Source: Gemmatimonadaceae bacterium (GTDB lineage Bacteria; Gemmatimonadota; Gemmatimonadetes; Gemmatimonadales; Gemmatimonadaceae). Taken from it: a DNA stretch of 64,000 nucleotides. The position numbers and the translations under genes were made by a program. Shown here piece by piece: positions 5,191 through 37,888 of this stretch. Below the pieces are notes generated by a model, which saw nothing but the letters and a program-made list of their open reading frames with translations, searched no databases and was not told where the DNA came from. Each line of letters starts with the position of its first letter. Position 1 is the stretch's first letter. Location: positions 20,385 to 84,384 of the forward strand of contig DASVXU010000144.1 in NCBI GenBank assembly GCA_036392515.1, in the 5' to 3' direction.

Positions 5191-5204
5191 GAGGGCTTCA
5201 ACAC

Positions 5205-5316
5205 GGCGAGGAGAGAGGAGAGAGGATCCGATAGAGAGAGGAGGGAGGAGAGAGCCGGCCAAAGCGCTCTCTCCTCCCTCCTCTCTTCGTCGGAGTCTCT
5301 CTCCTCTCTCCTCGCC
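5205..5316. repeat. Long GA-rich/CT-rich hairpin element, type A copy 1 (likely bidirectional terminator)
   Basis: The left arm ggcgaggagagaggagagagg...gagggaggagagagc pairs with the right arm gcgctctctcctccctc...ctctctcctctctcctcgcc. It is preceded by CAACACGGCGA and fills the gap between two convergent stops (5190 and 5328). Confidence 0.85.
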
Positions 5317-5327
5317 CTAGACAGCCT

Positions 5328-5717
5328 CTACTGACCAATATGCTTCCTGTACTCCTCCGGTCCGAGCAGCGAGTCGCGCTCGTCGGCGCCGCGGAGACGG
5401 AGCTTGATCATCCAGCCGTCGCCGTAGGGATCGCTGTTCACGAGCGCCGGCTCCTTGTCGAGGCGGTCGTTCACCGCGACGACTTCGCCGGCGAGCGGGC
5501 AGAACAGCTCCGAGACCGCCTTCACTGCTTCGACGGTGCCGAAGACATCGTGCGCGCCGAAGCTCGCGCCGACCTTCGGCAGCTCGACGTAGACGACGTC
5601 CCCGAGCTCGCCCTGCGCGTAGTCCGTGATCCCGATCGCGACGACGTCCGCGTCGCCGGTGTCCTTCACGTACTCGTGGTCCTCGGTGTACAGCAGATCG
5701 CTCGGAATGTCGGCCAC
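5328..5717 (-). CDS. gcvH: Glycine cleavage system H protein
   Basis: 129 aa with the lipoyl-lysine motif VEAVKAVSE, and family-typical length and sequence (DPYGDGWMIKL). Confidence 0.95.
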   Translation of the reverse strand: MADIPSDLLYTEDHEYVKDTGDADVVAIGITDYAQGELGDVVYVELPKVGASFGAHDVFGTVEAVKAVSELFCPLAGEVVAVNDRLDKEPALVNSDPYGDGWMIKLRLRGADERDSLLGPEEYRKHIGQ

Positions 5718-5754
5718 GACGCGCCTCGTCAGAAGGGTGAGAACGGCGCGAAGT

Positions 5755-6405
5755 CTACCCGCGTGGAGGCGCGAGTGTCAAGGAATCGCGGTCGTCGATT
5801 CGCGTCGCCGCTTCGGCGGCGAGCGCGCGCCACACCTCGTCGACGCGATGCTCGAGAGATTCGCGCGTGCCGTCGTTGTCGATCACGAAGTCGGCGCGCG
5901 CGCGCTTGAGGTCAGCGGGCATCTGCTGCGCGATCATCTGCATCGCTTCGGTCTCGCGCAGTCCGCGATCGCGCACGAGCCGCTCGAGCCGCACCGGGCG
6001 CTGCGCGTCCACCAGCACGATCCGGTCGAACCCGTCCGCGAGGTTCGCCTCGAAGAGCAGCGGGATGTCGCAGACGACGACGCGGTCGCCGCGTGCCCGC
6101 GCCTCGGCGACGAGCTCGTCGCGCATCCGAGCCACTTCGGGATGAACGATCGCATTCAGCTCGTGCAGCTCCTCGGGCTGGCCGAAGACGCGGCGCCGGA
6201 GCGCGGCGCGGTCGAGCACTCCATCGGGGGCGAGCACGCCGCTTCCCCAGCGGCGGACGATCGCGTCGTAGCCCCGTGTGCCCACGCGCACGGCCCGGCG
6301 CGCGAGCACGTCCGCGTCGATCAGCGTCGCTCCTCTCGCGACGAGAAGCTTGGCGACCGTCGACTTTCCCGAGGCGATGTTACCGGTGAGCGCGACGAGC
6401 AGCAT
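5755..6405 (-). CDS. coaE: Dephospho-CoA kinase
   Basis: ORF 5755..6588 trimmed to the ATG at 6405 (MLLVALTGNIASGKSTV, P-loop). It also has IDADVLAR and IVHP motifs typical of CoaE. Confidence 0.85.
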   Translation of the reverse strand: MLLVALTGNIASGKSTVAKLLVARGATLIDADVLARRAVRVGTRGYDAIVRRWGSGVLAPDGVLDRAALRRRVFGQPEELHELNAIVHPEVARMRDELVAEARARGDRVVVCDIPLLFEANLADGFDRIVLVDAQRPVRLERLVRDRGLRETEAMQMIAQQMPADLKRARADFVIDNDGTRESLEHRVDEVWRALAAEAATRIDDRDSLTLAPPRG

Positions 6406-6437
6406 GATGGCAGAGCCCTGGCGTGGCGGCATCGCCG

Positions 6438-6465
6438 CATCCGGACGTCCCCATCCGGACGTCCC
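6438..6465. repeat. Perfect tandem duplication of a 14-mer (CATCCGGACGTCCC x2)
   Basis: Read directly in the coaE upstream region. Each unit contains the palindrome GGACGTCC. Confidence 0.8.
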
Positions 6466-6654
6466 ATGGATGGGGTCGAACGAGCGCAATACTAGGACGC
6501 GCGAGCGCGTGCTGTCAACGCGAGCGATCACCAGCGCACACATCTTCGGTGCCAGCCGGGTCGAGAATCCAGAAGCGCCCGCCGCCACGCCGCGCGTGAT
6601 TGTTGCGTGCCGACGGTTCTGCGATCATTCCGCCAACCGCCACTGGAGCATCAC

Positions 6655-6909
6655 ATGCGCGATCCTCGCTCCCTCGGCTTCAACAAGCTCGCCGCTCTCG
6701 GCGCGCTCGCCGTCTGCGGCGGGCTCTTCCTGATTCTCGTGGCGCTGTTCGTCGTCCTGCACCCATACCCGCGTGGCGGGATGGACGGGACGCACTACGC
6801 GCTGACGCTGATGGCGTTCACCGGCCTGCTCGGCGCGATCATCGCCGTCCACCTCGCGTTCGCGCACCAGCTGTGGTACGCGCGCCCGGAGGCGTCAACA
6901 CGGCGATGA
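6655..6909 (+). CDS. Small membrane protein (two predicted TM helices), function unknown
   Basis: ORF 6607..6909. The likely start is MRDPRSLGFNKLAALGALAVCGGLFLILVALFVV, with a second hydrophobic span LTLMAFTGLLGAIIAVHLAF. The last codons and the stop lie inside hairpin element A2. Confidence 0.45.
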   Translation: MRDPRSLGFNKLAALGALAVCGGLFLILVALFVVLHPYPRGGMDGTHYALTLMAFTGLLGAIIAVHLAFAHQLWYARPEASTRR

Positions 6910-7005
6910 GAGACGAGAGAGGCTCCGATGGAGCGATGAGAGATAAGAGGAGGGTAGTCTCTCCTCTGTCCTCTCTTTATCGGAGCCTCTCTCTTCTCTC
7001 CTCGC
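6902..7005. repeat. Long GA-rich/CT-rich hairpin element, type A copy 2
   Basis: It opens with CAACACGGCGA (6896-6906) and ends with TCGGAGCCTCTCTCTTCTCTCCTCGCAGTG. It lies between convergent stops at 6909 and 7016. Confidence 0.85.
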
Positions 7006-7015
7006 AGTGACGAAC

Positions 7016-7630
7016 TCAGAGCAGGCGCCCTTGATCTTCGTCCGCCCGCGGGCACGAATGACAGTGCCGGCAGCGCGCCTGGTACGAGTCGCTCGCGCCG
7101 ACCATGATGGTCGGCGAGTCGTAGCGCGCGGGCTTTCCCTCGATCAGCCGCTGGTTGCGGCTCGCCGGGCCGCCGCAGATCACGCAGATCGCGTGGAGCT
7201 TGTCCACGACCTCCGCGACCGCCATGAGCTGCGGCATCGGTCCGAATGGCTCGCCACGAAAGTCGGTGTCGGTGCCCGCGAGGATCACGCGCCGTCCACG
7301 TGACGCGAGCGAGGTTGCCAGCGCGACTATCCCCGGGTCGAGGAACTGCGCCTCGTCGATCGCGATGACGTGCGCGGTCGGATCGATCCGGCCCGCGATG
7401 GTCGCCGAGCTGTCGATCGGGATCGCCTCGACGGTGCGCCCGTCGTGGCTCGACACCGAGTACAGACCCGCGTAGCGCTCGTCGAGGTGCGACTTGAACA
7501 CCTGCACCCGCTTGCGCGCGATGATCGCCCGCCGCACGCGGCGGATCAGCTCCTCGCTCTTCCCGCTGAACATCACGCCGCAGATGACTTCGATCCATCC
7601 GCCGGCGCTCGTGAAGTACGTGTCGCTCAC
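7016..7630 (-). CDS. tdk: Thymidine kinase
   Basis: 204 aa with P-loop [11 protein letters not shown], the IAIDEAQF motif, and C-terminal zinc-binding cysteines (CVICG...CRHC). Confidence 0.93.
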
Positions 7631-9288: not shown

Positions 9289-9474
9289 GATGTGTCCTGG
9301 CGTTGTGGCGTTCCCGACTCCGTGCTACCGTACTTCGCGAAGCTGGAAGATAGCCCCCCGGGCGGGCGCACTCCACCGTCCGCGCTCGCTCCTTCGATGA
9401 CGCGCGCGGATCCCCGGTGACGTGGAGCGCGTCCGGACCGCTTCACTTCGGCGCATCTCGAGCGGAGAACGACG

Positions 9475-10238: not shown

Positions 10239-10242
10239 GCCA

Positions 10243-10352
10243 CAACACGGCGACAGGTGAGGTGTGAGGAGCTGTGTCGCGTAACTCGTGACACACTTCG
10301 ACGGCCGTCAACGCCGGTCACGAGTCACTGCACACTCGTCCTCACACCTCAC
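10243..10352. repeat. Long hairpin element, type B (GTGAGG/CCTCAC words)
   Basis: It opens with CAACACGGCGA. The arm caggtgaggtgtgaggagctgtgtcgcgtaactcgtgac pairs with gtcacgagtcactgcacactcgtcctcacacctcaccgcc. It lies between convergent stops at 10238 and 10369. Confidence 0.85.
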
Positions 10353-10368
10353 CGCCCGCACGGTCGTT

Positions 10369-11859
10369 TCACTTGTCACTGATCACGACTCGCCGTCCGG
10401 GAGGCAGGACTCCATCGTCCCACACTCGCGTCGTCGCCACCGCGATGCCGCCGGCGGCGACCTCGATCCTGCCTAACGCGAGGCGGCGTGTCGGGGCGCC
10501 GGGAGAGGGCGCGTAGTCGATCGAGAGGTCGTGCGCGCCGGCGGGGAGCGTCACCCGCACCAGCGAGAGCTCGCCCGGGAGGAGCCGCCATTGCCGGGTG
10601 TCGGCGCGCTCCGTGAGGACGTTCAGCGCGTCCGCCGCCCAGCGCGTGACCGTCCCCGCGAGCTCTCCCTTCCTGTCCTCCATCCTGTCGGCGGCGGTCT
10701 TCGCCAGCGCCAGCTTCATCCCGGCTCGCAGCACGCCGCGCGTGAACGACGCGGCGCGCGAGCGGCGAAAGTCCGCCGCGACCGCGTCGCAGAGATCCGC
10801 GCTCATCGCGATCGGCCGCGGCGCCGCCGAGTCCACCACGAGCGATGCGCGCCAGGCCGGATGGTACGGGCGCTGGAGGCTCGTCCAGGCGACGGGAAGC
10901 AGATAGGCGATCTCGCGCGAGTCGTCGTTCATGCGGAGCTCGCGGTCGTCGTGCTCGTCGTGCCAGATGAAACGATCGCGGTCGCTCGCGATCCAGAGCA
11001 TCGCCCGCGCGCTGATCGCGGCGGCCGCGGCGAGCGTCTCCTCGGGCTTGCCGCCGAACTTGTCGAACTCGTCCTGGGTCACGGGGACGAGCACCAGCCG
11101 CGGCACCAGGTGCGCGACGTATCCGTGCTCGACGACGACGATCACGTCGCCCGTCGCGGGCTCGGCGGCCGGCCGCGTCGCGCGCGGGCGCCGTCCCTTC
11201 TTCGGCTCGGGGGGGAAGGGAAGCGCCGAGTCGCCGACGAGCGATCTCGCGACACGGTAGGACACCGCCGCGTCGTTCTTCTCGCCCGCCGCCTCGAATG
11301 CCGCGCCGGCGAGATAGTTCAACAGCGCTCGCGTTCGCGCGTCGACGCTGTCCTTCCGCGAGTCGAAGCTCTCGAGGAGCGCGCTCACCCGCCGCGCCTC
11401 CACCGCGGCGCCCTCGGCGTCCCCGCGTCGCAGGAAGTCGAGCATGCCGTAGTAGTTCATCATCAGCCGCTCGGTGCGCGACGGCTCGTACGGGAGCACG
11501 GCGTCGTTCGTCACCGCCGCCAGGAGATTCTTCGACGCGCTCTTCGTGTACCGGTCGTCGGCGAGCACCGCCGCGCGGTCGAGCGTCACCCCGCTCGTGT
11601 CGAAGCGGCCGGCGTAGTACAGCGCCGATGCCCGGTACAGCGACGCGAGCAGCTCGTCGCGCGGCGCGAAGCGTCCCTTCGCCGACACGAGGCCCAGCGC
11701 GTCCTCGAAGCGCCCGCCGGCGAACGACTGGCGCAGCGCGTAGTCGTCCTGGGTCAGACCCGCGCGCAGCACCTCCGGCGGGAGCGGTGGCCCCGAGTGA
11801 TGATGGAGACACCCGGTCGCCACCAGCGCGCCGACGAGCGCGGCCGCGACACCTCGCAT
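10369..11859 (-). CDS. Large lipoprotein, function unknown (COG3014-like, inference)
   Basis: 496 aa with signal plus lipobox MRGVAAALVGALVATGC and ordinary composition. It is the last gene of a four-lipoprotein cluster. Confidence 0.65.
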   Translation of the reverse strand: MRGVAAALVGALVATGCLHHHSGPPLPPEVLRAGLTQDDYALRQSFAGGRFEDALGLVSAKGRFAPRDELLASLYRASALYYAGRFDTSGVTLDRAAVLADDRYTKSASKNLLAAVTNDAVLPYEPSRTERLMMNYYGMLDFLRRGDAEGAAVEARRVSALLESFDSRKDSVDARTRALLNYLAGAAFEAAGEKNDAAVSYRVARSLVGDSALPFPPEPKKGRRPRATRPAAEPATGDVIVVVEHGYVAHLVPRLVLVPVTQDEFDKFGGKPEETLAAAAAISARAMLWIASDRDRFIWHDEHDDRELRMNDDSREIAYLLPVAWTSLQRPYHPAWRASLVVDSAAPRPIAMSADLCDAVAADFRRSRAASFTRGVLRAGMKLALAKTAADRMEDRKGELAGTVTRWAADALNVLTERADTRQWRLLPGELSLVRVTLPAGAHDLSIDYAPSPGAPTRRLALGRIEVAAGGIAVATTRVWDDGVLPPGRRVVISDK

Positions 11860-11865
11860 CGCCCG

Positions 11866-12687
11866 CTAGTGCTTCTCGAGGACGATGATCCGCTCCTTCG
11901 CGTGCGCGATCGCCTCCGCCTGCTTCGCGTACGCATCGCCGACCGCCTGGATGCGCTCGAGCTCCATCTGGTGCAGGAAGCGCTGGTAGCGCACGATCGC
12001 CTCGATCGGCCGGAGCTGCTTGTCGAGCACCGTCGCGATCCGGTACTCGAGCGTCGGATCGTTAGGCAGGAGGATGCTCGCGCGGTCGTAGCGGGCGAGC
12101 GCCGCGTCGAGGTCGCCGGCGGCGACGAGCATGTCCCCCTCGCGCACGAGCGCCTGCGCCGTCGCCCGCGCCTGCGCGTCGGCCGTCGCGTCGGCGGCGC
12201 GGGCGACGGTGCGGACACCGGTCGGCTCGGCGTAGGCGATCGCCGCGACCTCGCCCTTCTGCACCTGCACGAGCGCGACCGGGGCGACCATGTCGCGCGG
12301 CGTCTGTTCCATCCGCGCCGAGGTGTAGATCGCCGCGTCGCCGGCGCGCCGGATCGACCACGCGGCCGGCGTCGTCCGCGTCGCGGCCATGAGCTGCGTC
12401 TCGCTCATGCCGAGCGTCACCTCGCCGCGCGTCACCGCGGAGCAGACGTCGGGCGCGCAGCCCATCATCGCCGCCGCCATGATCGAGTCTCGCGCGTACA
12501 GCTCGCGCGCCTGCGCCGGGGCCGTGCGGTCACGCGCCGCGGCGACGGTGGAGTCGGCGCTCGGCGCGCGATCCCCCGTGCGGAGGATCGTCACAGGCTG
12601 CGGATCGAGGTGCTGCTGCGTGCACGCGACCGCGGCCAGCGCGAGCAGCGCGGCGGCGCGGGTCATCATCGGGGAGCTCATCGTCAT
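11866..12687 (-). CDS. Lipoprotein with TPR-like C-terminus, function unknown
   Basis: ORF 11866..12765 trimmed to the ATG at 12687 (MTMSSPMMTRAAALLALAAVACT). The C-terminal helical region reads AAGDLDAALARYDRASILLPNDPTLEYRIATVL. Confidence 0.6.
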   Translation of the reverse strand: MTMSSPMMTRAAALLALAAVACTQQHLDPQPVTILRTGDRAPSADSTVAAARDRTAPAQARELYARDSIMAAAMMGCAPDVCSAVTRGEVTLGMSETQLMAATRTTPAAWSIRRAGDAAIYTSARMEQTPRDMVAPVALVQVQKGEVAAIAYAEPTGVRTVARAADATADAQARATAQALVREGDMLVAAGDLDAALARYDRASILLPNDPTLEYRIATVLDKQLRPIEAIVRYQRFLHQMELERIQAVGDAYAKQAEAIAHAKERIIVLEKH

Positions 12688-12697
12688 GCCTCGCGGG

Positions 12698-13318: not shown

Positions 13319-13379
13319 CGAAGACTGCTCCGCTGTGAGGTGTTCGATCGCGTGCCGCGACGACCCGTCCCAGTCGGAG

Positions 13380-14342
13380 TCAGTCGAGGCACCAGTTGGA
13401 CCGGCCGCGATACAGCTCGCTCCACGCGCCGTTCTTGTACTGCAGGAACGCCAAAAAGGTGTCACCGCCGAACCGCCACCCCTCGATCGCCAGCTCCGTC
13501 GTGCCGTCCCCCGCGACGTCGAGGTGGTCCACGAAGCGCTGGAAATCGCCCGTCGCCGCGTCACCGTCCACGACGTGGGTGTAGCCGGGCTTGTAGTCGC
13601 TTCCCACCGCGTCCGCCACGACGAAGACGTGCACGGTGCGCTCGTGCGCGGAGCTCTGCTCGTCCGCGTGCGGGTCGAGCAGCGAGGCCACGATCGTCGG
13701 CGACGAGGAGACTCCCGTCGCCACCGCGGTCGCATGCAGCTCCAACCCGGTGAGCGCCGCTTCCGAAACCCCCGCGCTGCGCGCGACGCGCGTCGCGACC
13801 TCCCGCCCGATGCGATCAACCTCGCTCTGCGCCATGTGCGTCACACCCGCGTCGTGGAGCGGACGCGTGCTGGCGAAGAGCGCGACAGTGTAGCCCGGCC
13901 GCGCCTGCGCGGCGAGCGTCATCGCCGCCTGGGGAATCATGAGGGTGCAGTTGGGCAGTGTATAGAGGGGATCCTTCCCATCCGTCCACATCCCCTGCCG
14001 CACCGTCGCGTGCCCGACCGCGCGCCCGTCGTCATAGACGGTGTACTGCGCACCCGCTTTCCCGTAGAGCGCGTCGAACTGCTTCCACCCGCTCGCCCCC
14101 AGCTCGATCTGCTCGATCGTGCCGTTGCGCAGCACGCCGATCGGGATCATGCGCGGATCGTCCCGCTCCCCGTAGATCTGGAACAGGATATCCGGACGCG
14201 ACGAGAGGTCGAGGCGCGCGGCCGACGGGGCCTGCTCCTCGGATGTCGGCTTCGCCTCGGCGGATCCGCCCGCGAGCTGGCGCGCCTTGTCGCACCCGAG
14301 CGCCAGAATTAGAGTGGTCGCGAGAAGGCGGCCTCGCCTCAT
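13380..14342 (-). CDS. Lipoprotein, function unknown
   Basis: 320 aa with signal plus lipobox MRRGRLLATTLILALGC and non-shadow composition. Confidence 0.6.
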   Translation of the reverse strand: MRRGRLLATTLILALGCDKARQLAGGSAEAKPTSEEQAPSAARLDLSSRPDILFQIYGERDDPRMIPIGVLRNGTIEQIELGASGWKQFDALYGKAGAQYTVYDDGRAVGHATVRQGMWTDGKDPLYTLPNCTLMIPQAAMTLAAQARPGYTVALFASTRPLHDAGVTHMAQSEVDRIGREVATRVARSAGVSEAALTGLELHATAVATGVSSSPTIVASLLDPHADEQSSAHERTVHVFVVADAVGSDYKPGYTHVVDGDAATGDFQRFVDHLDVAGDGTTELAIEGWRFGGDTFLAFLQYKNGAWSELYRGRSNWCLD

Positions 14343-23240: not shown

Positions 23241-23411
23241 ACGGCGACGAGAGAGCGGGGAGTCAGTCCAACGAGAGACCTGTAAGGGGCCGATTCTTTG
23301 AACGAGAGAGGGGACGACCTGCGAACCCGCGGGTTCGTCCCTTCCTCGTTGTCCTTCAACTCGCCAGTCGCTCGTCCCGCTTCGGAGCCTCTCACGTCTC
23401 TCGTCGCAGCG
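23241..23411. repeat. Compound hairpin element, type A copy 4
   Basis: It begins GAACGGCGACGAGAGAG and ends TCGGAGCCTCTCACGTCTCTCGTCGCAGCG. There is an inner hairpin gggacga...gaacccgcgggttc...gtccc. It lies between convergent stops at 23240 and 23462. Confidence 0.8.
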
Positions 23412-23461
23412 TCCGACCCGGGACATCGCGCCCTGTTACGCCCCCGCCCGCTCTCGCGTCT

Positions 23462-23647
23462 CTACTCCGATCGCCGCGACACGGTTCGCTTCGGTCGCGC
23501 GACGATTCCCCAGAGCAGCAGGAAGATTCCGCCGGTGAGCAGACCGTGGAACCATCCCGGCGCTTCGAAGTAGAAGGTGCCCACTGCCCAGAGGACGAGC
23601 ACGACGAGTGCGATCGGGATCGCTGATCCTGTCAGGAAAGTTCGCAT
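23462..23647 (-). CDS. Small membrane protein (lmo0937-like family, inference)
   Basis: ORF 23462..23719, with the likely start at MRTFLTGSAIPIALVVLVLWAVGTFYFEAPGWFHGLLTGGIFLLLWGIVARP. There are two TM helices. Confidence 0.55.
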   Translation of the reverse strand: MRTFLTGSAIPIALVVLVLWAVGTFYFEAPGWFHGLLTGGIFLLLWGIVARPKRTVSRRSE

Positions 23648-23765
23648 TGACGTGATCTGATCTGGTCCGTAGGTTGCGATTGAGAAGGAACGCAGGAGCA
23701 CGAGGGACGGAGAGCTCACTTTTTTGAGCCAACAAGTCCACCGAGTGGGTTCGATAATCTATACT

Positions 23766-23893
23766 GACGTCACGCCTCCAGTGCGGGGGAAGACGGAAGG
23801 TGTGGTGAGGACCTCATACATTCGACTGGGCTTCAAAAAACCTCTTCGTTCCCTTCCCCGTGAGCCCCGCAGCGATGCGGGGCTCGCCTTTTT
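23766..23893 (+). ncRNA. Candidate structured small RNA or leader ending in an intrinsic terminator
   Basis: This is a non-coding AT-richer island. The purine run gggggaagacggaagg can pair with ccttcgttcccttcccc downstream, and a clean terminator follows. I cannot assign it to any known RNA family. Confidence 0.2.
23862..23893 (+). terminator. Rho-independent terminator
   Basis: GAGCCCCGC-agcgat-GCGGGGCTC followed by gccTTTTTg. Confidence 0.7.
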
Positions 23894-24051
23894 GCGGTAG
23901 CTTTGGAACGGTCGCGGCGGCCAGCTCATTGGTTGCCGGTCGCCGGTCTTGGGTGTGCCGTCGCCGTTCCCGCATCCTCGTATCCCGCATCGCGGTCTCG
24001 CCGAACGCAGCGAAGGCCCCCTCGCATCGCTGTTTCCCAGGTACCCGCATC

Positions 24052-25875: not shown

Positions 25876-25878
25876 CGC

Positions 25879-26535
25879 GTGCACTCGGAGATCGTCGACA
25901 CCCTGCGCTGTCTCGGCGCGCACGAGGAGAGCTGGCTCGTCGCCGCCGCCGACGTCACCGAGGACCGGCACATCATGCGCGGGATCCTCGGCTGCCCGAC
26001 CTGCCGCGCGCGCTATCCGATCGAGGACGGGGTCGCGGACTTCACCGGCGGCCGCCCGCGGCACGTCGCCGTCGAGCCGGACGGCCCGCCGCTGGAGGAG
26101 GGCGACGCGCTGAAGCTCGCCGCGATGCTCGACCTCACCGAGGCGGGCGGTTACGTCCTCCTGCTCGGCCGCTGGGCGCGGCTCGCGAGCGCGCTGCGCG
26201 AGATCGTCCCGGTGATGGTGATCGTCGCCAACGCTCCGCCGGACGTCGTCATGGGCGCGGGAGTGTCGGGGGTCCACGTCGGCGATCGCCTCCCTCTCGC
26301 CGCGAGCTCGGCGCGCGGCGCCGCGATCGACGGCGGCAGCGCGGCACTCGCCGAGTCCGCGATCGCCGCGGTGCGATCGGGGGGACGGATCGTCGGCGAG
26401 GCGTCGCTCGAGCCGCCCGTGGACGTCGAGCTGCTCGCGCGCGACGAGCGACACTGGGTCGGAACGCGACGGGGCGGGGGACCGCTCCTGAAGCTGGTAC
26501 GCGGCGGCGCGCCCGCACCGCGAGAGGGTGGATGA
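25879..26535 (+). CDS. Trm112-like zinc-ribbon protein fused to a methyltransferase-like region
   Basis: The N-terminal part reads GILGCPTCRARYPIEDGVADF (Trm112/UPF0434 pattern). The remainder is weakly Rossmann-like, and I did not recognise a clear SAM motif. Confidence 0.5.
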   Translation: MHSEIVDTLRCLGAHEESWLVAAADVTEDRHIMRGILGCPTCRARYPIEDGVADFTGGRPRHVAVEPDGPPLEEGDALKLAAMLDLTEAGGYVLLLGRWARLASALREIVPVMVIVANAPPDVVMGAGVSGVHVGDRLPLAASSARGAAIDGGSAALAESAIAAVRSGGRIVGEASLEPPVDVELLARDERHWVGTRRGGGPLLKLVRGGAPAPREGG

Positions 26536-26583
26536 AGCGCGAAGGGCGCCGGACGAACCGTCCGGCGCCCTTCGCGCTTCATC
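26531..26583. terminator. Perfect hairpin with a stem of about 25 bp between convergent genes
   Basis: gatgaagcgcgaagggcgccggacg-aac-cgtccggcgcccttcgcgcttcatc. It overlaps the stop of 25879..26535. Confidence 0.75.
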
Positions 26584-26592
26584 TCGCCTCTC

Positions 26593-27087
26593 TCAGGGCG
26601 CGACTTTCCCCGCGGCCTCGGCCATCGACTTCTTGTGCCAGATGGAGCTCGGCACGACGGCGGTCGTCCCGTTCGCCGCCGGCGGCGGCGCGAAGACGAG
26701 CGATCCACCCGCGGCGCTGGCGACGATGACGATCGGCTTCCCGGCCGCGAACGACGCGGCGAGCGGACCCTGATCCGCGCTCCCGCCGGTCGGCGTCAGC
26801 GTGAGCAGACCGTCGCCGTAGCCGGTCGTGCCCGAGACCAGCACGTTCGAGCGCGAGGGATACTTCGCGCTGATCGTGAAGGTCGACGGTTGAAGCGAGA
26901 GCTCGACGAGGCTCGCCCCGGCGAACGCGGTCGAGTCGGGGTTCGCGAGCACCCAGTCGCCGTAGATGCTCGTGCTCGAGGGCTCACGGTGCGCCGGCGG
27001 CGCGTCCTTGATGCCGAACGTCTTGCGTATCGTCCCGCAACCCGCGAGCGCCACCACGATGGCGGCCACAGCGGTTACTCTGCGCAT
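26593..27087 (-). CDS. Lipoprotein, function unknown
   Basis: Signal plus lipobox MRRVTAVAAIVVALAGC. 164 aa. Confidence 0.6.
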   Translation of the reverse strand: MRRVTAVAAIVVALAGCGTIRKTFGIKDAPPAHREPSSTSIYGDWVLANPDSTAFAGASLVELSLQPSTFTISAKYPSRSNVLVSGTTGYGDGLLTLTPTGGSADQGPLAASFAAGKPIVIVASAAGGSLVFAPPPAANGTTAVVPSSIWHKKSMAEAAGKVAP

Positions 27088-27141
27088 CGGATCTCCTTGC
27101 CTGTTCGGTCGGGAGAAAATGCAGAGACCGTGCCCGGCTCG

Positions 27142-27219
27142 GGGGAGTACGGGGCTCGGGAGTACGGGAGTACGCAGCTGCCCTCTGGCAGTGCCGTACT
27201 CCCGTACTCTCTACTCCCC
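27142..27219. repeat. Long hairpin element, type C copy 1 (GAGTACGG/CCGTACTC words)
   Basis: ggggagtacggggctcgggagtacgggagtacgcagctgcc pairs with ggcagtgccgtactcccgtactctctactcccc. The right arm supplies the last codons (GE) and the TAG stop of fadD. Confidence 0.85.
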
Positions 27220-29109
27220 TTCGGAGTACATCCCCTCGATCGCGTCCCGGTACCGTTTCTCGACGATCTTCCGCCGCACCTTCAGCGTGGGGGTCATCTC
27301 GCCGTCTTCCAGCGTCAGGTCGCGGTCGAGGAGGGCGATCTTCTTCGGCTGCTCGTAGTTCGCCAGCGAGCCGGTGCGGCCGAACACCTCCTTCTCCATC
27401 TTCGCCTGCACGATCGGCATCGCGATGAGCTGGCGACGATCGTTGTACATCAGATTCTTGATCTTCGCCCACTTCTCGAGCTGCTCGAAGTTCGGCACGA
27501 TCAGCATGCTCGGGAACTTGCGCTTGTCGCCGAGCATGATCGCCTGGCTGACGTACTTGTTCGTCTTCACCATGTTCTCGATCGGCTGCGGCGCCACCTT
27601 CTTCCCGCCCGCCGTCACGATCAGATCCTTCTTGCGATCGGTGATCGCGAGGAAGCCGTCGCGCAGCTCGCCGATGTCCCCCGTGTGGAACCAGCCGTCG
27701 GCGTCGATCGCCTCACGCGTCGCGTCGGGCTTGTTCCAGTAGCCCTTCATCACGTGCGGACCGCGGGTGAGGATCTCCCCGTCGCTCGCGATCGCCACCT
27801 CGACGCCCGGGATCGGCCGCCCGACGGTGCCGAGCCGGAACTCGGAGGGGGTGTTGCAGCAGATCACGGGGGACGTCTCGGTGAGCCCGTATCCCTCGAG
27901 GATCGTCAGCCCCGCGGCGTAGAAGAACTTGTTGATCTCGGGGGAGAGCGGCGCGCCGCCGGAGACGAAGAAGCGCAGCCGGCCCCCGGTGCGCGCCTTG
28001 AGCTTCGAGAAAACCAGCTTCTGCGCGACGCGATACTGCGCGCCGAGGAGCGGATTCGGCCGCCGGCGCGCGAGCACCACGTCCGCCCACTTCTCGGCGG
28101 CACGTCGTGCCCAGAAGAAGATGCGCTTCTTCACCGCGCCGCCCGCGAGCGCGTTGTCGAGCACACGCGCGTACATCTTCTCGTACAGCCGTGGCACGGA
28201 CGCGACGATCGTCGGCCTCACTTCCTGCATGTTGACCGGCACGGTATCCATCGACTCCGCGTATGCGATCGTCGTCCCGGTGTGGAGCATCGTGAAGTGG
28301 CCGACCATCCGCTCGAAGACGTGCGAGAGGGGGAGGAAGCTCAGCGCGAGATTCTCCTCCCCCTCGGGGAAGGCGACCGCCAGCCGGAGCACGGCCGACA
28401 TCACGTTCGAGAAGAAGTTGTCGTGGGTGAGCATCACGCCCTTCGGCTCGCCCGTCGTTCCCGAGGTGTAGATCAGCGTCGCCACGTCGTCCGGCTTCGC
28501 GCGCATCGCTTCGGCGCGGTACGCGGCGAGCGACTCCGCGCTCTCGCCGTCCATCCCGCGCGCCTCGAGGTCGGTGAGCGTCATGTCCGCGCCCTCGGGG
28601 CGCGGCGAGGCGAACGAGATCACGTGCCGCAGTGTCGGGACATCCTTGCGCGCTTCCGCGACCTTCGCCGCCTGCACCGGGGTCGAGACGAACACCGCGG
28701 TCGCGCCGGAGTCGCGCAGGATGTACGCGATCTGGTCCGGCGGCAGGTTCGGGTACAGCGCGACGTCCACGACGCCGGAGGTCAGGCACGCGTAGTCCGC
28801 GATCGCCCACTCCGGCCGGTTCTCGGAGAGGATCCCGACGCGGTCTCCTGGCTGGACGCCAAGCGCGCGCAGCCCGCGGCCGACACGCGCCACGCGCTGG
28901 AGGAGCGTACGGTGGCTGATCGGCGTCCACTGGCCTCCGGTCTTGCAGAGCAGGGCGTCGGGGCGGTCGTACTTCTCGACGGCGTCGTAGAAGAGCTGCG
29001 GGATCGTCCCGGGCTGGCCGACGCGCGGGCCGCCCGAAGTGATCGGGCCGATCGCCGGGGTCGCGGCGACGGCGCCCGCGGGGCGCGACACGGATGAGGT
29101 CTCAGTCAT
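27211..29109 (-). CDS. Long-chain fatty-acid--CoA ligase (AMP-dependent synthetase)
   Basis: It has the AMP-binding signature YTSGTTGEPKGV, plus GWFHTGDIGE and KKDLIVTAGGKKVAP. Confidence 0.9.
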   Translation of the reverse strand: MTETSSVSRPAGAVAATPAIGPITSGGPRVGQPGTIPQLFYDAVEKYDRPDALLCKTGGQWTPISHRTLLQRVARVGRGLRALGVQPGDRVGILSENRPEWAIADYACLTSGVVDVALYPNLPPDQIAYILRDSGATAVFVSTPVQAAKVAEARKDVPTLRHVISFASPRPEGADMTLTDLEARGMDGESAESLAAYRAEAMRAKPDDVATLIYTSGTTGEPKGVMLTHDNFFSNVMSAVLRLAVAFPEGEENLALSFLPLSHVFERMVGHFTMLHTGTTIAYAESMDTVPVNMQEVRPTIVASVPRLYEKMYARVLDNALAGGAVKKRIFFWARRAAEKWADVVLARRRPNPLLGAQYRVAQKLVFSKLKARTGGRLRFFVSGGAPLSPEINKFFYAAGLTILEGYGLTETSPVICCNTPSEFRLGTVGRPIPGVEVAIASDGEILTRGPHVMKGYWNKPDATREAIDADGWFHTGDIGELRDGFLAITDRKKDLIVTAGGKKVAPQPIENMVKTNKYVSQAIMLGDKRKFPSMLIVPNFEQLEKWAKIKNLMYNDRRQLIAMPIVQAKMEKEVFGRTGSLANYEQPKKIALLDRDLTLEDGEMTPTLKVRRKIVEKRYRDAIEGMYSEGE

Positions 29110-31422: not shown

Positions 31423-31965
31423 ATGTCTCCACGTCGCTACACCGTCGATCAGACGAAGGGCGTCCTCGACGTCGAATGGCCTCTGTTCGGCGAGATGGCG
31501 CGCGCGCTGGCGCTCAAGGTCGCGCGCGAATACGACCCGGAGATCATCGTCGGCATCGCGACCTCGGGGGTGATCCCCGGCGCGGTCATCGCGGCGATCC
31601 ACGCGCGCGAGTTCCGCGCGATGACGATCAGCCGTCGCGGCGACGAGGAGGCGGTGCGCGCCACGCCCCACGTGCTCGGCAGCGTCCCGCCCCAGGTGCG
31701 CGGGCGGCGCGTGCTCATCGTCGACGAGACCTGCGACTCGGGCGACACGATCCGCCTCGCGGTCAGCGCCTGCGTCAACGCCGGCGCCACCGAGGTGCGC
31801 ACCGCGGTCTGCTTCCGGACGGGCGCCTACGAGCCAGACTTCCACGCCCTCGCGACCGAGAGCACGATCGTGCTCCCCTGGGACCGCGAGATCCTCATCG
31901 ACGGCGAGCTCGTTCCGAATCCGTTGTACGAGGACGCGCGAAAGGCGCTGTCGCCGTACCGGTAG
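31423..31965 (+). CDS. Phosphoribosyltransferase-family protein
   Basis: It has the PRPP-binding motif VLIVDETCDSGDT. 180 aa. Confidence 0.8.
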   Translation: MSPRRYTVDQTKGVLDVEWPLFGEMARALALKVAREYDPEIIVGIATSGVIPGAVIAAIHAREFRAMTISRRGDEEAVRATPHVLGSVPPQVRGRRVLIVDETCDSGDTIRLAVSACVNAGATEVRTAVCFRTGAYEPDFHALATESTIVLPWDREILIDGELVPNPLYEDARKALSPYR

Positions 31966-32035
31966 GGGTCAGGGGTCGGGGGTGAGCGATCGGCGCTGAC
32001 CCCCGACCCCCGACCCCCGACGGCCGACCCCCGAG
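31965..32035. repeat. Hairpin element, type D (GGGGTC/GACCCC words)
   Basis: ggggtcaggggtcgggggtgagcg-atcg-gcgctgacccccgacccccgaccccc. The right arm carries extra GACCCC units. It lies between convergent stops. Confidence 0.85.
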
Positions 32036-32037
32036 CG

Positions 32038-32586
32038 CTACTCGACCTCGCCTAACGCGACCTCGTACCCCTCGCCGCGGCCCATCGTCTCGTAGACGTG
32101 CTCCATCACTTCCGCGTTCCCGACGAGGAAGCGGCAGCGTGAGGCGCCGGCGGAGCGGCATTCGACCTCGAGCACCGCGAGCGGCGCGTCGGCGATGCGG
32201 CCGAAGAAGTCGGCGAACATCCCGGTCGTGAAGTGGCAGGCCGGATGATCCATCCCGCTCTCCGGATCGGCCTCACCCCAGTCGCGCGAGTCGAGCGTCG
32301 CGACCGCGTTGCGCAGCGACCCGATCGCGACCGAGCCCCATCCCGCCTCGCGGAAGAACGCCGTCGCCAGCTCACCGAAGCGCTCGAGCGGGAGGGACTC
32401 CGGTGCCGGCTCCTTGCGCGCCGTCAGCCAGCCGCGGAACGACGCGAAGAGCGTCTCGCCCCCCGCGTACCCCGCTTCCTGGAGGTATCCCGCCGCCGCC
32501 GCGCCCGCGTCGCGGTAGAGCGCCGCGCGCAGCGCCGCCAGCGCCGGCCGCGGCAACCCGAGCATCCCGTTGTTGACCAGTTCCAT
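32038..32586 (-). CDS. V4R-domain (4-vinyl reductase-like) small-molecule-binding protein
   Basis: ORF 32038..32727 trimmed to MELVNNGMLGLPR. The C-terminal cysteine pattern HPACHFTTGMFADFF...ECRSAGASRCRF is typical of V4R domains. Confidence 0.65.
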   Translation of the reverse strand: MELVNNGMLGLPRPALAALRAALYRDAGAAAAGYLQEAGYAGGETLFASFRGWLTARKEPAPESLPLERFGELATAFFREAGWGSVAIGSLRNAVATLDSRDWGEADPESGMDHPACHFTTGMFADFFGRIADAPLAVLEVECRSAGASRCRFLVGNAEVMEHVYETMGRGEGYEVALGEVE

Positions 32587-32707
32587 GGTGAGTCCGCGGT
32601 CAGAGACCGTTAGTGCCACTCGGTGAGCCGAACCGGTGGTCGTGCGCCGTGCATCGCGTACCGCCGTATCGTTTGACACGCCTTCCGCTCGTTCGCCGGA
32701 ACGTGCA

Positions 32708-34744: not shown

Positions 34745-34761
34745 GGCGCTGAATATACGGT

Positions 34762-34901
34762 CACGACGAGGAGAGAGGAGAGATACCGCGATCGAGAGAG
34801 GAGAGAGGAGAGACGAAAAGACGATGTGGTCACCGCAATCGTCGTTTCGTCTCTCCTCTCTCCTCTCTTCATCGGAGCCTCTCTCGTCTCTCCCCGCAGT
34901 G
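34762..34901. repeat. Long GA-rich/CT-rich hairpin element, type A copy 3
   Basis: cacgacgaggagagaggagag...gagaggagagaggagagacg pairs with cgtctctcctctctcctctc...TCGGAGCCTCTCTCGTCTCTCCCCGCAGTG. It lies between the GAF gene stop and the ligA start. Confidence 0.85.
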
Positions 34902-34907
34902 TCGAAC

Positions 34908-35714
34908 CTATCCCTCCGCTTCCTTGTCCAGCACCTGCATCGTCACCGTCACGAGCCGCTCCAGCTCCTCGTCGCTCGCCTTCGGGAGGAGCGTCTCCGC
35001 CCACATGTGGTCCTCGGTGCGCGTGTAGCGGTCGAGGAGCCGGCGGATGAAGGCGATCATCGCGATGCGCTGCATCTCGCCGCGGCGCTGCGCCTTGTTC
35101 ACGTCCTGCGTGTCGCGGATCAGCGACTCGAAGCGGTACGAGTTGCGGAGCGCCTTCGCCGTCAGCGAGGCGATCACCTGGCAGAAGCGGACGTCGCTGT
35201 CGCTGAAGGGGGCTGCCTCACGCTCGGTGCGGAGGAAGATCGCGCCGATGATCGTCCCCTGGGCACGGATCGGCACGACGACGATCGAGCGTACGTTGCG
35301 CAGGTTGAGCTGGTCGCGCACCCCACGCAGCATCGGGTCGGTCGCCGCGTCGGGGATGAACACCGTCTCCCCGCTGTCGAAGGCGCGCTTCAGCTCCGGG
35401 TAGCGGGAGAGGTCCACGACGAGGTTGCGGATCGTCGGGTCCTCGTAGCTCGCGACGAGCCGGACCTCTTCCTTCTCGCCGCTGAGGAAGATCGAGCAGC
35501 GATCGAGCCCGAAGGACTCGCCGAGCTTTCGCGCGATCGTCTGGAGGATGTCGACGAAGTGCAGCGAGGAGGCGATCTCCTGCTGGATGTCGACGATCGC
35601 TACGAGGTGGTCACGCTCCCGCTGGAGCTCCGCGATCCTCGCCTCGAGGCGCGCTATCTCCGAGTGCTGCGCTGAGGGCGCTGGAGGTGACGTCGGCGTC
35701 GGCGGTTGCTCCAT
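34908..35714 (-). CDS. GAF-domain protein with N-terminal coiled coil
   Basis: 268 aa. The coiled coil EIARLEARIAELQRERDHL is followed by a GAF-like core (LDRCSIFL...VVVPIRAQGTIIGAIFL). Confidence 0.75.
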   Translation of the reverse strand: MEQPPTPTSPPAPSAQHSEIARLEARIAELQRERDHLVAIVDIQQEIASSLHFVDILQTIARKLGESFGLDRCSIFLSGEKEEVRLVASYEDPTIRNLVVDLSRYPELKRAFDSGETVFIPDAATDPMLRGVRDQLNLRNVRSIVVVPIRAQGTIIGAIFLRTEREAAPFSDSDVRFCQVIASLTAKALRNSYRFESLIRDTQDVNKAQRRGEMQRIAMIAFIRRLLDRYTRTEDHMWAETLLPKASDEELERLVTVTMQVLDKEAEG

Positions 35715-36759
35715 CAGGGGGCTCGAGGTGCGCGTTGAATTCGTCGCTGGCGAAGCGGACGACCTTGTTGCGCCCCGTCTCCTTCGCGACGTAGAGCGCG
35801 TCGTCCGCCGTCTTCACCAGCATCTCGTAGTGCGAGATGGCGGGATGCGGCCAACCGGCGACCCCGAAGCTGGCCGTCCGCTTCAGACTGCCGCCGTCGA
35901 AGGTAAAAGTATGCTCCTCGACCGCTTTGCGCACGCGCTCGGCGAACGTCACCCCCGCGTCGAGCACCGTCCCCGGAAGCAGGATGATGAACTCCTCTCC
36001 GCCGTAGCGTCCGATCTTGTCGATCTCGCGCGCCTCGGCCTCGAGGATGCGCGCGAACTGCTTGAGCACCGCGTCCCCCGCCTGGTGCCCGTAGGTGTCG
36101 TTGACGCTCTTGAACTTGTCGAGATCGCACATCACGCACGACAGCGGCTCGTTGAGCCGCATGCTGTGCTCGAACATCTCGTGCAGCCGCTCCTCGATGA
36201 AGCGGCGGTTGCGCAGTCCCGTGAGGCCGTCGGTCTGCGACATGTAGAGCAGCTGCCCGTTGAGCTTCGCGAGCTCGCCGTTGAGCTGCTCCAGCTCGTC
36301 GGTGCGCGCCTCGAGCTCGTCCTGGAGCCGCTTGATGCGCAGCATCGACTTCACGCGCGCGCCGAGCTCCGCGAACTCGATCGGCTTCGTGATGTAGTCG
36401 TCGGCCCCCGCGCCCAGCCCCGCGACCTTGTGCTCCGGCGCGTCGAGGGCGGTCTGCATGATGATCGGGATGAAGGGGAGCGACTTGTTCTCCTTCACGC
36501 GCCGCGCGACCTCGGTCCCGTCGATCGTCGGCATCATGACATCGAGCAGCACGAGGTCGGGGGGATCCTGCTCGATCATGCGCAGGGCTACGTCCCCGTC
36601 GGCCGCGGTGGAGGTGCGATAGCCCCACGCTTCGAGGCGGGTCTGCAGCAGGTCGACGTTGTCCTCGTGGTCGTCGACGATGAGGATGCGCGCCGGGCGC
36701 GCCTCGGTGGTGGGCGGCGCCGACCCGTCCGTGGTCGACGCCAGCTCCTCAGGCGGCAT
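35611..36759 (-). CDS. Response regulator-diguanylate cyclase (REC-GGDEF)
   Basis: The REC domain has LLDVMMP and ITKP. The active site is GGEEF, with an RxxD I-site (REID) five residues upstream. The 3' end overlaps the GAF gene by about 104 nt. Confidence 0.9.
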   Translation of the reverse strand: MPPEELASTTDGSAPPTTEARPARILIVDDHEDNVDLLQTRLEAWGYRTSTAADGDVALRMIEQDPPDLVLLDVMMPTIDGTEVARRVKENKSLPFIPIIMQTALDAPEHKVAGLGAGADDYITKPIEFAELGARVKSMLRIKRLQDELEARTDELEQLNGELAKLNGQLLYMSQTDGLTGLRNRRFIEERLHEMFEHSMRLNEPLSCVMCDLDKFKSVNDTYGHQAGDAVLKQFARILEAEAREIDKIGRYGGEEFIILLPGTVLDAGVTFAERVRKAVEEHTFTFDGGSLKRTASFGVAGWPHPAISHYEMLVKTADDALYVAKETGRNKVVRFASDEFNAHLEPPDGATADADVTSSALSAALGDSAPRGEDRGAPAGA

Positions 36760-37138
36760 TGCCCGTTCCGAGGAAGCGCTGCACCTCGGCCACGACCGCG
36801 CGCGGCTCGCAGGGCTTCGCGAGATAGCCGTCGCAGCCGACCTCCATCGCCTTCTCCCGGTCCGACGCGAGCGCGTGCGCCGTCAGCGCGATGATCGGGA
36901 TCGACCGCGTCTGCGGATCGTGCTTCAGCACCTGCGTCGCCTCCCAGCCGTCGATGATCGGGATGGAGATGTCCATCAGGATCAGGTCGGGGTGCTCGCT
37001 GCGCGCCTTCGAGATCCCCTCCTCGCCGTTCAACGCCTCCGTCACCTTGTAGCCGAAATGGCGGAGAATCGTGGAATAGACGATGCGGTTGTCCTCATTG
37101 TCCTCGACGAGGAGAACGGTCTTCCCATTGGGCGTCAT
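36749..37138 (-). CDS. Single-domain response regulator (CheY-like)
   Basis: ORF trimmed to MTPNGKTVLLVEDNEDN. It has the phospho-acceptor context LILMDISIP, plus ALTAHA and YLAKP. Confidence 0.88.
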   Translation of the reverse strand: MTPNGKTVLLVEDNEDNRIVYSTILRHFGYKVTEALNGEEGISKARSEHPDLILMDISIPIIDGWEATQVLKHDPQTRSIPIIALTAHALASDREKAMEVGCDGYLAKPCEPRAVVAEVQRFLGTGNAA

Positions 37139-37344
37139 GCCAGTCCTCGCGCTGCTCGCGCGCGAGGAGGACGCCTCCCCGCCTGGCTCCGCGAGTGCAG
37201 CAGTGTCGTGTGAGTTCACAGTTGGGTTCCGGGTTGACCGGAGCATACGCGAAAACGTCGCCCGGGAGCTGAGCCGGGGACGCCGAAACGACGAACGACC
37301 TCCCACAAGCAAGATTCTTACCACCCAGAAGAGACCCCCGTCCG

Positions 37345-37797
37345 ATGTCCTACGCACCGAATCCGACCCGTATCCGGTCCGCAACCCGGGAACCCGCCGG
37401 CACCCGAGCCGGGGGACGTGACCGTCTCGCCGCCGCGGACTCGCGCGGGACGCGCGGCCAGCGGGGCTCCGCCCCGTCCGTAGGAACCCGCGCGAGCGCG
37501 CGAGGGAAGCCCTATGACGAGGCGCGCGACTGGGGGAAGATCGCGCTGGTCGCGGGCGGGATCGCCGCCGGGGCCGCGATCGGGGCCGGGCTCGCGCTCC
37601 TCTTCACCGACGAGACCGGGCCGGAGCGGCGCGCCGGCATCGCCAGACGCGCCCGCCGCTTCGGGCATGACGCCGAGCAGCGCTGGGAAGACCTCGCCTT
37701 CGAGCTGAAGGAGGCCGCCCGCACCGCGCGCGACAAGCTCCGCCTCCACCGCGCCCGCAAGCAGGCCGCGGACGACGAGACCGAAGCCGACGACTGA
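37345..37797 (+). CDS. YtxH-like membrane-anchored protein (start uncertain)
   Basis: The TM/Gly-zipper segment is GKIALVAGGIAAGAAIGAGLALLFTDETGPERR, followed by charged helices. The first 50 codons or so are RG-rich and may not be translated. Confidence 0.5.
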   Translation: MSYAPNPTRIRSATREPAGTRAGGRDRLAAADSRGTRGQRGSAPSVGTRASARGKPYDEARDWGKIALVAGGIAAGAAIGAGLALLFTDETGPERRAGIARRARRFGHDAEQRWEDLAFELKEAARTARDKLRLHRARKQAADDETEADD

Positions 37798-37799
37798 CT

Positions 37800-37888
37800 C
37801 CCGGGAGTCCGGGAGTCGGGGAGTACGGGAGTACGCAACTGCCACATGGCCGTGCCGTACTCCCGTACTCCCGTAGCCTTTACTCCCC
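37800..37888. repeat. Long hairpin element, type C copy 2
   Basis: gggagtccgggagtcggggagtacgggagtacgcaactgcc pairs with ggccgtgccgtactcccgtactcccgtagcctttactcccc. The right arm supplies the codons GE plus the TAA stop of gene 37880..38665. Confidence 0.85.

Follow-up and report, generated by a model that had tools for sequence, protein, structure and literature searches.

Families of dispersed palindromic repeats with arms of tandem seven- and eight-nucleotide words at gene 3′ ends in Gemmatimonadaceae DNA

Introduction

Dispersed palindromes of the repetitive extragenic palindromic (REP) type or the type of MITEs (transposable elements that are miniature and have inverted repeats) and G-rich heptamer microsatellites near stop codons have been treated in two separate literatures, which are joined by the elements described here. 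These are long intergenic hairpins in a 64,000-nt stretch of DNA from an uncultured soil bacterium of the Gemmatimonadaceae (70.3% GC; hereafter the window), and they are a real and well-supported feature, REP/MITE-like palindromes with heptamer-microsatellite arms. The window carries at least four families of such repeats with arms of 7–8-nt tandem words, which we call types A, B, C/C′ and D. Their closest precedents are the inverted GGGAATC heptamer arrays of Xanthomonas (with the short tandemly repeated repetitive, or STRR, sequences of Nostoc), the REP and REPIN elements, and MITEs. Literature searches naming the phylum or genus turned up no paper on these repeats.

The ERIC/IRU elements, the Correia elements of Neisseria and the SNRs of Deinococcus are MITE-like imperfect palindromes of 100–200 nt with inverted termini; they lie in transcribed intergenic DNA and may overlap gene ends and supply stop codons, as do the elements here. 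Correia elements make a TA duplication, of which there is none in the elements here, and we know of no ERIC/IRU, Correia or SNR family that is made of tandem 7–8-nt words.

The Xanthomonas heptamers form 70–75 inverted pairs per genome (Rehm et al. 2015, PMC4692102). Both these and the Nostoc GGGGA(C/T)T arrays resemble the window elements in being tandem G-rich heptamers of variable unit number, in the frequency of inverted pairs in which either strand begins with the G-rich array, and in a length and sequence that vary widely between close species. Location agrees too, with arrays no more than 50 nt from a stop codon or overlapping it, the G-rich strand being the coding strand, and pairs lying between convergent genes. 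Unlike those arrays, the elements here show neither the GGGNATC or GGGGA(C/T)T unit nor the four-unit G-quadruplex preference, several word families (one of them octameric) share one genome, and the words of type A are unable to form a three-tetrad G-quadruplex. Moreover, a conserved apex or core marks every family here, and defined inverted termini bound type A, so that the copied unit is the whole hairpin and not just a microsatellite.

REP, BIME and REPIN elements (Nunvar et al. 2010, PMC2817692; Bertels and Rainey 2011, PMC3116915) are similar to those of the window in being hairpins outside genes, sited between convergent pairs or at 3′ ends, in several families and many copies per genome (here ten elements in 64 kb). 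Neither kind makes a target-site duplication, both keep their positions with a sequence specific to the lineage, and both have units reiterated in tandem; by analogy, a role as 3′-UTR hairpins is probable. They differ in that a REP is defined as a palindrome of ~20–35 nt with a GT(A/G)G head (PMC2817692), which is absent here, where the arms are word arrays that exceed a REP two- to threefold in length. The papers that we found report neither REPs nor REP-associated tyrosine transposases (RAYTs) from this phylum, and we identified no RAYT near the elements. With rho-independent terminators the elements share a GC-rich hairpin directly after the stop codon, one hairpin serving both convergent genes, but the stems are 25–64 bp rather than 5–14 bp, there is no U-tract, and the same sequence is present at many loci.

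The explanation that we favour, and think reasonably likely, is that these are dispersed quasi-palindromic non-coding families that are copied whole without target-site duplication, are remodelled in place, and have a REP-like effect in 3′ UTRs.

Results

Long hairpins with word-built arms

A preliminary description of the window reported eight long hairpins, all of which are present where it placed them and rank at the top of the window's inverted repeats in two independent scans. We refer to them as e1 (5196–5326), e2 (6895–7013), e3 (10243–10372), e4 (23241–23415), e5 (27139–27222), e6 (31962–32041), e7 (34757–34905) and e8 (37798–37888). Only e4 was assigned a strand (minus). RNA folding energies range from −56 to −105 kcal/mol, with z-scores relative to dinucleotide shuffles of −5 to −11 for seven of the eight: −105 kcal/mol (z −11.0) for e1, −78 (z −8.6) for e2, −64 (z −7.1) for e3, −58 (z −5.9) for e5, −56 (z −5.0) for e6, −103 (z −10.1) for e7 and −57 (z −7.5) for e8. 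The exception is e4 (−82 kcal/mol, z −2.9), which is degenerate. Two long elements were absent from the preliminary description, a hairpin at 26514–26600 (no strand; −80.5 kcal/mol, z −11.7) with 42-nt arms that are not clearly word-built, and a type C′ element at 63224–63303 in a convergent gap (GGGTTGGGGGATCAGGCGGTGGGAACCGCG...GCCGTTCCTTACGCCTGGCCCCTGACCCC, no strand; C′ profile E = 2.8e-20). Such elements account for ~1.6% of the window.

Tandem arrays of period 7 or 8 are ~80-fold denser within the elements than outside them (12 Tandem Repeats Finder rows in ~0.9 kb of elements vs 10 in the remaining 63 kb), the period being 7 for types A and C and 8 for type B. The arm words are GAGAGAT/GGAGAGA, GGGAGTAC, GGGGTCA/GGGGCCA and GGTGAGG. 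Over the copies and arms compared, in relatives as well as the window, unit numbers go from 2 to 11; the arms of e6, for example, have 3 and 5 units, and such variation is to be expected from slippage. The mirror-repeat purine arms could also permit H-DNA to form.

Folds of this stability might suggest that the elements belong to a known family of structured RNAs, as small-RNA genes or as cis-regulators, an explanation that we find scarcely credible. No Rfam family matches the window at gathering thresholds, and in a permissive run the elements match only eukaryotic miRNA-precursor models, which are generic hairpins, at scores far below threshold. Moreover, as palindromes the elements are without a defined strand; they lack a promoter and lie 0–9 nt from stop codons.

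The type A family

The preliminary description had united the hairpins in a single superfamily with shared ends and hypervariable interiors. The shared opening 11-mer CAACACGGCGA does occur exactly three times (5199, 6896 and 10243; 0.06 expected), and the shared closing motif stands at its three named sites (6980, 23382 and 34872), albeit with a gap of 2 nt ahead of CGCAG and not 1 nt. Its portion TCGGAGCCTCTC-N3-TCTCTC has a fourth exact match at 6908 on the minus strand, in the other arm of e2, and there are two one-mismatch matches inside e1, giving six within two mismatches against 0.07 expected. These ends, however, are the terminal inverted repeat of one family alone, type A (e1, e2, e4 and e7), and its interior is the reverse of hypervariable.

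A scan for TCGGAGCCTCTCNNNTCTCTC across one genome per species (185,579 species) returned 36 exact matches, 24 of them in five Gemmatimonadaceae metagenome-assembled genomes (MAGs), where a single contig can carry as many as three copies; the ends are thus conserved beyond the window. Alignment of 17 full copies gave a consensus of ~178 nt with a conserved, non-palindromic core of ~55 nt, and in most copies the terminal anchors are 160–163 nt apart. The canonical termini TTCAACACGGCGA...TCGCCGTGTTGAA bound long inverted arms of heptamer words, each arm comprising two GAGAGAT heptamer blocks with GGCTCCGAT or TACCGCGAT between them. In full the inverted termini are GCTTCAACAC(G/T)GCGA...TCGCCGTGTTGAAGC, with a variant TATGACAC; they read as TTCAACACGGCGA or TATGACACGGCGA, with no GT(A/G)G head. 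Core inversion was considered as a trait of the family and rejected, the two apparent orientations being two subfamilies that differ in the arm motif (TACCGCGAT vs GGCTCCGAT).

An nhmmer profile built solely from copies outside the window matches e7 (E = 5e-37), e1 (1e-22), e2 (4e-13) and e4 (9e-9; minus strand, full length, model positions 14–191), and e3 with E = 0.04 only; it finds 32 copies in 261 kb of Gemmatimonadaceae DNA, a biased sample. No type A element was found in ~55 kb from the nearest sister species. Judged on sequence, the GAGAGG copies of the window are short or decayed derivatives of canonical type A that have been internally deleted or palindromised. Both e1 (GGAGAGA words; left terminus TTCAACACGGCGA, right terminus degenerate) and e2 (GATGAGA words; GGCTCCGAT/ATCGGAGCC motif in both arms) are short and have no core; in e7 (GGAGAGA words) the 5′ half-core is swapped for a palindromic copy of the 3′ half; and e4 is full-length but decayed, with the closer TCGGAGCCTCTCACGTCTCTCGTCGCAGCG kept.

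Type A in some respects resembles a classical MITE, that is, a deletion derivative of an insertion sequence with a DDE transposase, mobilised in trans through its terminal inverted repeats. Its inverted termini are sharply defined (GCTTCAACACGGCGA...TCGCCGTGTTGAAGC), its length between anchors is uniform, and there are multiple copies across several MAGs; terminal inverted repeats (GCTTCAACACGGCGATGAGAG...CTCTCATCGCCGTGTTGAAGC) together with uniform small size are found in type A only, the ends of types B and C being fuzzy and word-decaying instead of inverted termini. Target-site duplications were also sought, and no 2–5-nt direct repeat is present in the 17 canonical type A copies at any of 12 boundary offsets (P ≥ 0.69 vs permuted flanks). 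No pair of type A termini encloses a gene-sized segment in the DNA examined, an absence that carries little weight because insertion sequences assemble poorly in MAGs; viral contigs gave 0 matches to type A motifs. A MITE origin is improbable in our estimation. The resemblance of some words to the terminal bases of IS66 and Tn3 was treated as coincidence.

We note two further observations on type A copies elsewhere (labels L001–L061 denote loci and contigs of relatives and of other MAGs and metagenomes that were compared with the window). At L035 506–620, L028 5682–5760, L031 5344–5400 and L043 ~4088–4129 the left terminus is tandemly repeated ahead of a full element as mini-hairpin units of 36–42 nt (TCAACACGGCGAGGAGCGACGCCGTGCGCTCGGAGT). 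L014 and L025, both from MAG bin JAICUE01, have a type A element and its right flank in common and unrelated left flanks, the repeat having either given rise to a chimeric assembly or recombined with another copy.

Types B, C/C′ and D

By their sequences, type B (GAGTACGG), type C/C′ (GGGGTC/GGGGCC) and type D (GTGAGG) are dispersed families in their own right, and each has a conserved apex peculiar to it. Types B and C are without the shared ends of type A, and their words decay outward. Type B is represented in the window by e5 (profile E = 1.5e-22), which reads (GGGAGTAC)n - GCAGCTGCC loop GGCAGTGCC - (GTACTCCC)n, and by e8 (E = 1e-22). A metagenome scan for its arm gave 12 loci, six of them from one sample, including L053, a contig that matches 5.1 kb of the window with 99.9% identity. 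All six have the form (GGGAGTAC)n-GCAACTGCC-loop-GGCAGTGCC-(GTACTCCC)n with differing flanks and unit numbers, and the type B profile finds eight copies in the DNA examined with the same apex and different flanks.

Type C in the window is e6, with GGGGTCA/GACCCCC heptamers, and the C′ profile finds seven copies in the DNA examined, those beyond the window being in L001, L051, L054 and L057. The type D element e3 (arms GGTGAGGTGTGAGG; inner stem GTGACTCGTGAC...GTCACGAGTCAC) aligns with its ortholog at L001 1–140 and with an independent copy at L050 848–965. A complete type D terminus is GTGAAACG...GGGCGGTGAGG; e3 has the type D terminus GCCCGCACGGTCGTTTCAC on the right, and its left outer end has been exchanged for a type-A-like terminus, which accounts for the third copy of the 11-mer. 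Relatives contain further word-armed hairpins with GTAAGCG, GCCAGT, CCTCATCCTGCC and GGAGGCTGTG words. The preliminary suggestion of REP/MITE-like dispersed repeats, as opposed to one-off terminators, thus agrees with the presence of copies at many loci and in other MAGs.

Turnover at orthologous sites

BLAST alignments with syntenic relatives (85–90% nucleotide identity) stop exactly at each element and restart beyond it, and the orthologous sites contain another family, a one-armed word array, or nothing. The e1 site (type A in the window) has a type C′ hairpin in L001, and the e2 site (type A) is empty in L001, where the convergent genes overlap at CTAG. At the e8 site type B is replaced by type C′ in L057; L060 does not cover the e1, e2 or e8 sites. 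At the e7 site (type A) L057 has a one-sided (CCTCATCCTGCC)x6 array plus a hairpin, and L060 an unrelated hairpin; at the e6 site (type C) L057 has type C′ and L060 a GGAGGCTGTG-type hairpin; and at the e5 site (type B) L057 has type C and L060 is empty. A check of these sites for presence/absence polymorphism, as had been proposed, therefore reveals both this and replacement: families turn over fast between close relatives, one replacing another at fixed intergenic positions. Because sites can be empty in relatives, the elements are not essential at a given site.

There are also signs of remodelling in place, namely the unequal arm units, one-armed arrays, a local duplication, and the palindromised core of e7. 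L061, at 94% nucleotide identity, keeps e7, although the element itself is only ~85% identical (estimated by eye). When L061 1–80 is compared with window 34757–34830, the ATCGGAGCC marker is ligA-proximal in L061 and distal in the window; only half of the element is on the L061 contig, and the arrangement suggests that the e7 interior was flipped there by recombination between its arms. The case at L057 4525–4591 is fairly clean: a type C′ element lies exactly between a TAG stop codon and an A-run (window 40117–40126), and within it is a tandem duplication of 21 nt that takes in the last codons of the gene itself and its stop codon. One-armed type-B-like octamer arrays follow the ligA stop directly in L057 ((GGGAGTAC/GGGAGCAC)x11, 12032–12130) and L061 ((GGGAGTAA/GGGGGTAA)x5, 2105–2150), and are absent from the window and L060.

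Separately, L057 carries a ~150-nt array of CGATGCGCGATGC-like words (13400–13560) in a divergent phosphoribosyltransferase (PRTase)/TPR promoter region, which the window and L060 do not have. A related word string occupies the ligA–V4R spacer of the window (32620–32707), which does not align with relatives.

Gene ends and arm polarity

Genes were mapped from codon-position GC and checked with NCBIfam. The thymidine kinase and the NAD-dependent DNA ligase of the window match "MAG: Gemmatimonadaceae bacterium" proteins (the ligase with 100% identity), and such protein matches led us to reject a haloarchaeal source, which the 70% GC had first suggested. ARAGORN found no tRNA in the window. On this map e1, e2, e3, e4, e6 and e8 sit between convergent stops, in accord with the count of six reported previously, although for e4 this depends on counting a small membrane-protein open reading frame (ORF) at ~23461–23647(−); e5 and e7 sit between co-directional genes. 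Long elements occupy eight of the window's nine convergent gaps, and the ninth has a short hairpin (48097–48125).

Stop codons lie 0–9 nt from the elements or inside them. Thus e1 fills the gap between ORF 4873–5190(+) and gcvH 5328–5717(−); e6 touches the TAG stops of both the PRTase gene 31423–31965(+) and the V4R gene 32038–32619(−); and e7 lies between the stop of a GAF gene (34908) and the start of ligA (34744). The first bases of e2 encode the last residues (Ser-Thr-Arg-Arg, STRR) and TGA stop of ORF 6607–6909(+). The outermost e5 word GGGGAGTAG (minus strand) ends the acyl-CoA ligase gene 27211–29109(−) by supplying its final codons and stop, as the e8 word variant GGGGAGTAA (minus strand) does for the TPR gene 37880–38665(−), whose C-terminus is unlike that of its ortholog, and the 26514–26600 hairpin overlaps the ends of both its convergent neighbours. 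The ligase ortholog of L057 gains nine residues and a TGA from a type C arm, and the ends of ligA differ among the window, L057, L060 and L061. As read from the sequence, GATGAGA heptamers would present TGA in all three frames after three units. An enrichment of TAG stops beside elements was considered and set aside (7/17 near vs 9/43 elsewhere, not significant by estimate).

The G-rich, purine-rich arm is 5′ in all 37 of the 37 hairpins scoring at least 50 bits in the Gemmatimonadaceae DNA examined (~11 independent kinds). Since the palindrome is identical on both strands, each of two convergent genes meets the G-rich words first on its own sense strand. For the same reason we rejected a replication-strand bias behind the left purine arms: polarity is the same on both strands, and the regularity is that the G-rich arm comes first.

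Polarity of this kind would be expected if the primary unit were a G-rich word array on the sense strand just after the stop codon, as in the heptamers of Xanthomonas (GGGAATC) and Nostoc (STRR), acting by way of a G-quadruplex, an R-loop or a word-binding protein, with hairpins arising secondarily where arrays face each other. In keeping with this are the one-armed arrays that directly follow the stop of ligA, with 11 units in L057 and 5 in L061, and the placing of the words, which start 0–9 nt past a stop or take it in. As judged by eye, four G-tracts are usual in at least one arm of type B copies, which matches the four-unit preference in PMC4692102. However, e5 and e7 are two-armed though they lie between co-directional genes, the conserved apex of each family travels with both arms, the type A words (GAGAGAT, GGAGAGA) are without G3 tracts, and type C′ has only two G-tracts per arm. 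We consider this explanation unlikely.

Another proposal is that these are ordinary bidirectional terminators evolving in place, with no copying between loci and with convergent similarity. The occupancy of the convergent gaps would suit it, as would the 26514–26600 hairpin, which keeps its base (GAGAGAGGCG...CCTCTCTC) and changes its apex between relatives as evolution in place expects, and the lack of any enrichment of canonical T-tailed terminators in the sequence. It leaves aside the near-identical ~178-nt type A copies, with their non-palindromic core, at unrelated loci in five MAGs, and the family-specific apices common to loci in types B, C′ and D; nor do the elements have a T-tract, and their sites can be empty. 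Because of the dispersal data, terminators as the sole explanation are contradicted, and we regard the proposal as very improbable.

Within the first 40 kb of the window just one canonical terminator is convincing, a stem at 23860–23887 followed by CTTTTTG. It ends a candidate small RNA gene at 23720–23895 (+) that has an upstream sigma-70-like TTGAGC...TATACT (by eye) and a weak, sub-threshold Rfam match to 6S RNA (24.9 bits vs 46.4, E = 0.5). Upstream of the ligA ATG, at a distance of 8 nt, is a conserved GTATATTC (window 34745–34757; also in L057, L060 and L061) that looks like the −10 box of a leaderless ligA transcript, which would place the −35 region inside whichever element occupies the e7 site. 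An AT-rich inverted repeat, GGACATGCTAAATACTTAGCATAGTGCTAATTTTTTAGCA (40143–40186), upstream of a BlaI/Penicillinase_R-type repressor gene (40205–40588) and conserved in L057, is probably the operator. The short GC-rich hairpins at 48097–48125 and 49263–49300, the latter a perfect 38-nt palindrome, are both at gene 3′ ends and share a core, GGGGGCCGGGAT; they may be a further small repeat family.

Discussion

Family structure, dispersal, turnover, polarity and the lack of target-site duplication are observations; the copying mechanism and any effect on RNA are inferred from them. In the explanation that we favour, an element comprises a conserved apex or core and inverted arms of 7–8-nt G/purine-rich words, with defined inverted termini in type A. 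The whole element would be copied to new sites at or just inside gene 3′ ends, either as a single-strand hairpin by a RAYT-like HUH enzyme or by replication template switching. Slipped-strand gain and loss of words would then alter it in place, and fold-back copying, an intra-strand template switch, could extend, symmetrise or flip its arms, the outcome being rapid replacement at fixed intergenic positions. With the G-rich arm 5′ in every case, the transcripts of both convergent genes would run from stop codon to G-rich words to C-rich words and end in a very stable hairpin. REP elements in 3′ UTRs are a combined terminator and mRNA stabiliser (bioRxiv 10.64898/2026.03.23.713779), and the most likely effect here is a similar one, in which a 3′-UTR hairpin would limit read-through and protect the upstream mRNA.

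A specific version of this explanation is a REPIN/RAYT system, in which every family would owe its copying to a RAYT of its own, an HUH tyrosine transposase with a single-copy gene that works on single-stranded DNA in folded form. In its favour, several families of long extragenic hairpins reside together, as do the three REPIN families of P. fluorescens (PMC3116915); the elements lack target-site duplications, differ in family repertoire between lineages at conserved positions, and at times have the type A terminus in tandem mini-hairpin units that recall BIME arrays. Yet the head that defines a REP (PMC2817692) is not present in any family, the arms are arrays of words and not REPs of 20–35 nt, no Y1/HUH gene was seen beside the elements where copies cluster in L016 and L043, and the 2010 survey found RAYTs in proteobacteria only (PMC2817692). 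We hold this version to be possible but doubtful.

Several points weigh against the broader explanation of copying and a REP-like effect as well. Housekeeping genes without a Y1_Tnp domain separate the clustered copies in L016 and L043, with no transposase next to them, and no mobilising enzyme was found in the incomplete genomes examined. A scan for hairpins plus T-runs called none of the elements, no T-tract comes after any of them, and the proposed effect on mRNA is by analogy with REP. Covariation in type A is weak (8 compensatory cells in 6/50 pairs), so that arm pairing may reflect recent copying instead of selection. The e2 and e5 sites are empty in L001 and L060, respectively, and at 85–90% identity these filled-versus-empty comparisons are not clean and do not polarise insertion vs deletion. 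Copy number per genome is an extrapolation from the 64-kb window and fragmented MAGs.

The elements have practical consequences for the study of this group. Contigs often end inside elements (L001, L024 and L061) or close to the positions of window elements (L005–L008 among them), which is consistent with the elements being multi-copy and helping to fragment soil short-read metagenome assemblies of the group. Gene 3′ ends in these MAGs need care in annotation because the elements rewrite protein C-termini. The invariant 5′ position of the G-rich arm, the contact with stop codons, which the elements abut or supply, and the replacement of families at a fixed site could help in testing whether such arrays are selfish DNA, mutational by-product or gene-end signal.

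A broader idea, which we put forward as decidedly unlikely, is that Gemmatimonadaceae, and by extension Xanthomonas and Nostoc, have a distinct, actively maintained gene-end signal of G-rich word arrays placed straight after stop codons, usually forming a giant hairpin, that replaces T-tailed terminators and is renewed by a dedicated copying activity. If so, the signal would be a non-canonical bidirectional transcription-end or mRNA-protection device working through a hairpin, G-quadruplex or R-loop, and a dedicated copying or array-building activity would explain how its sequence is replaced faster than genes diverge while its position and polarity are kept.

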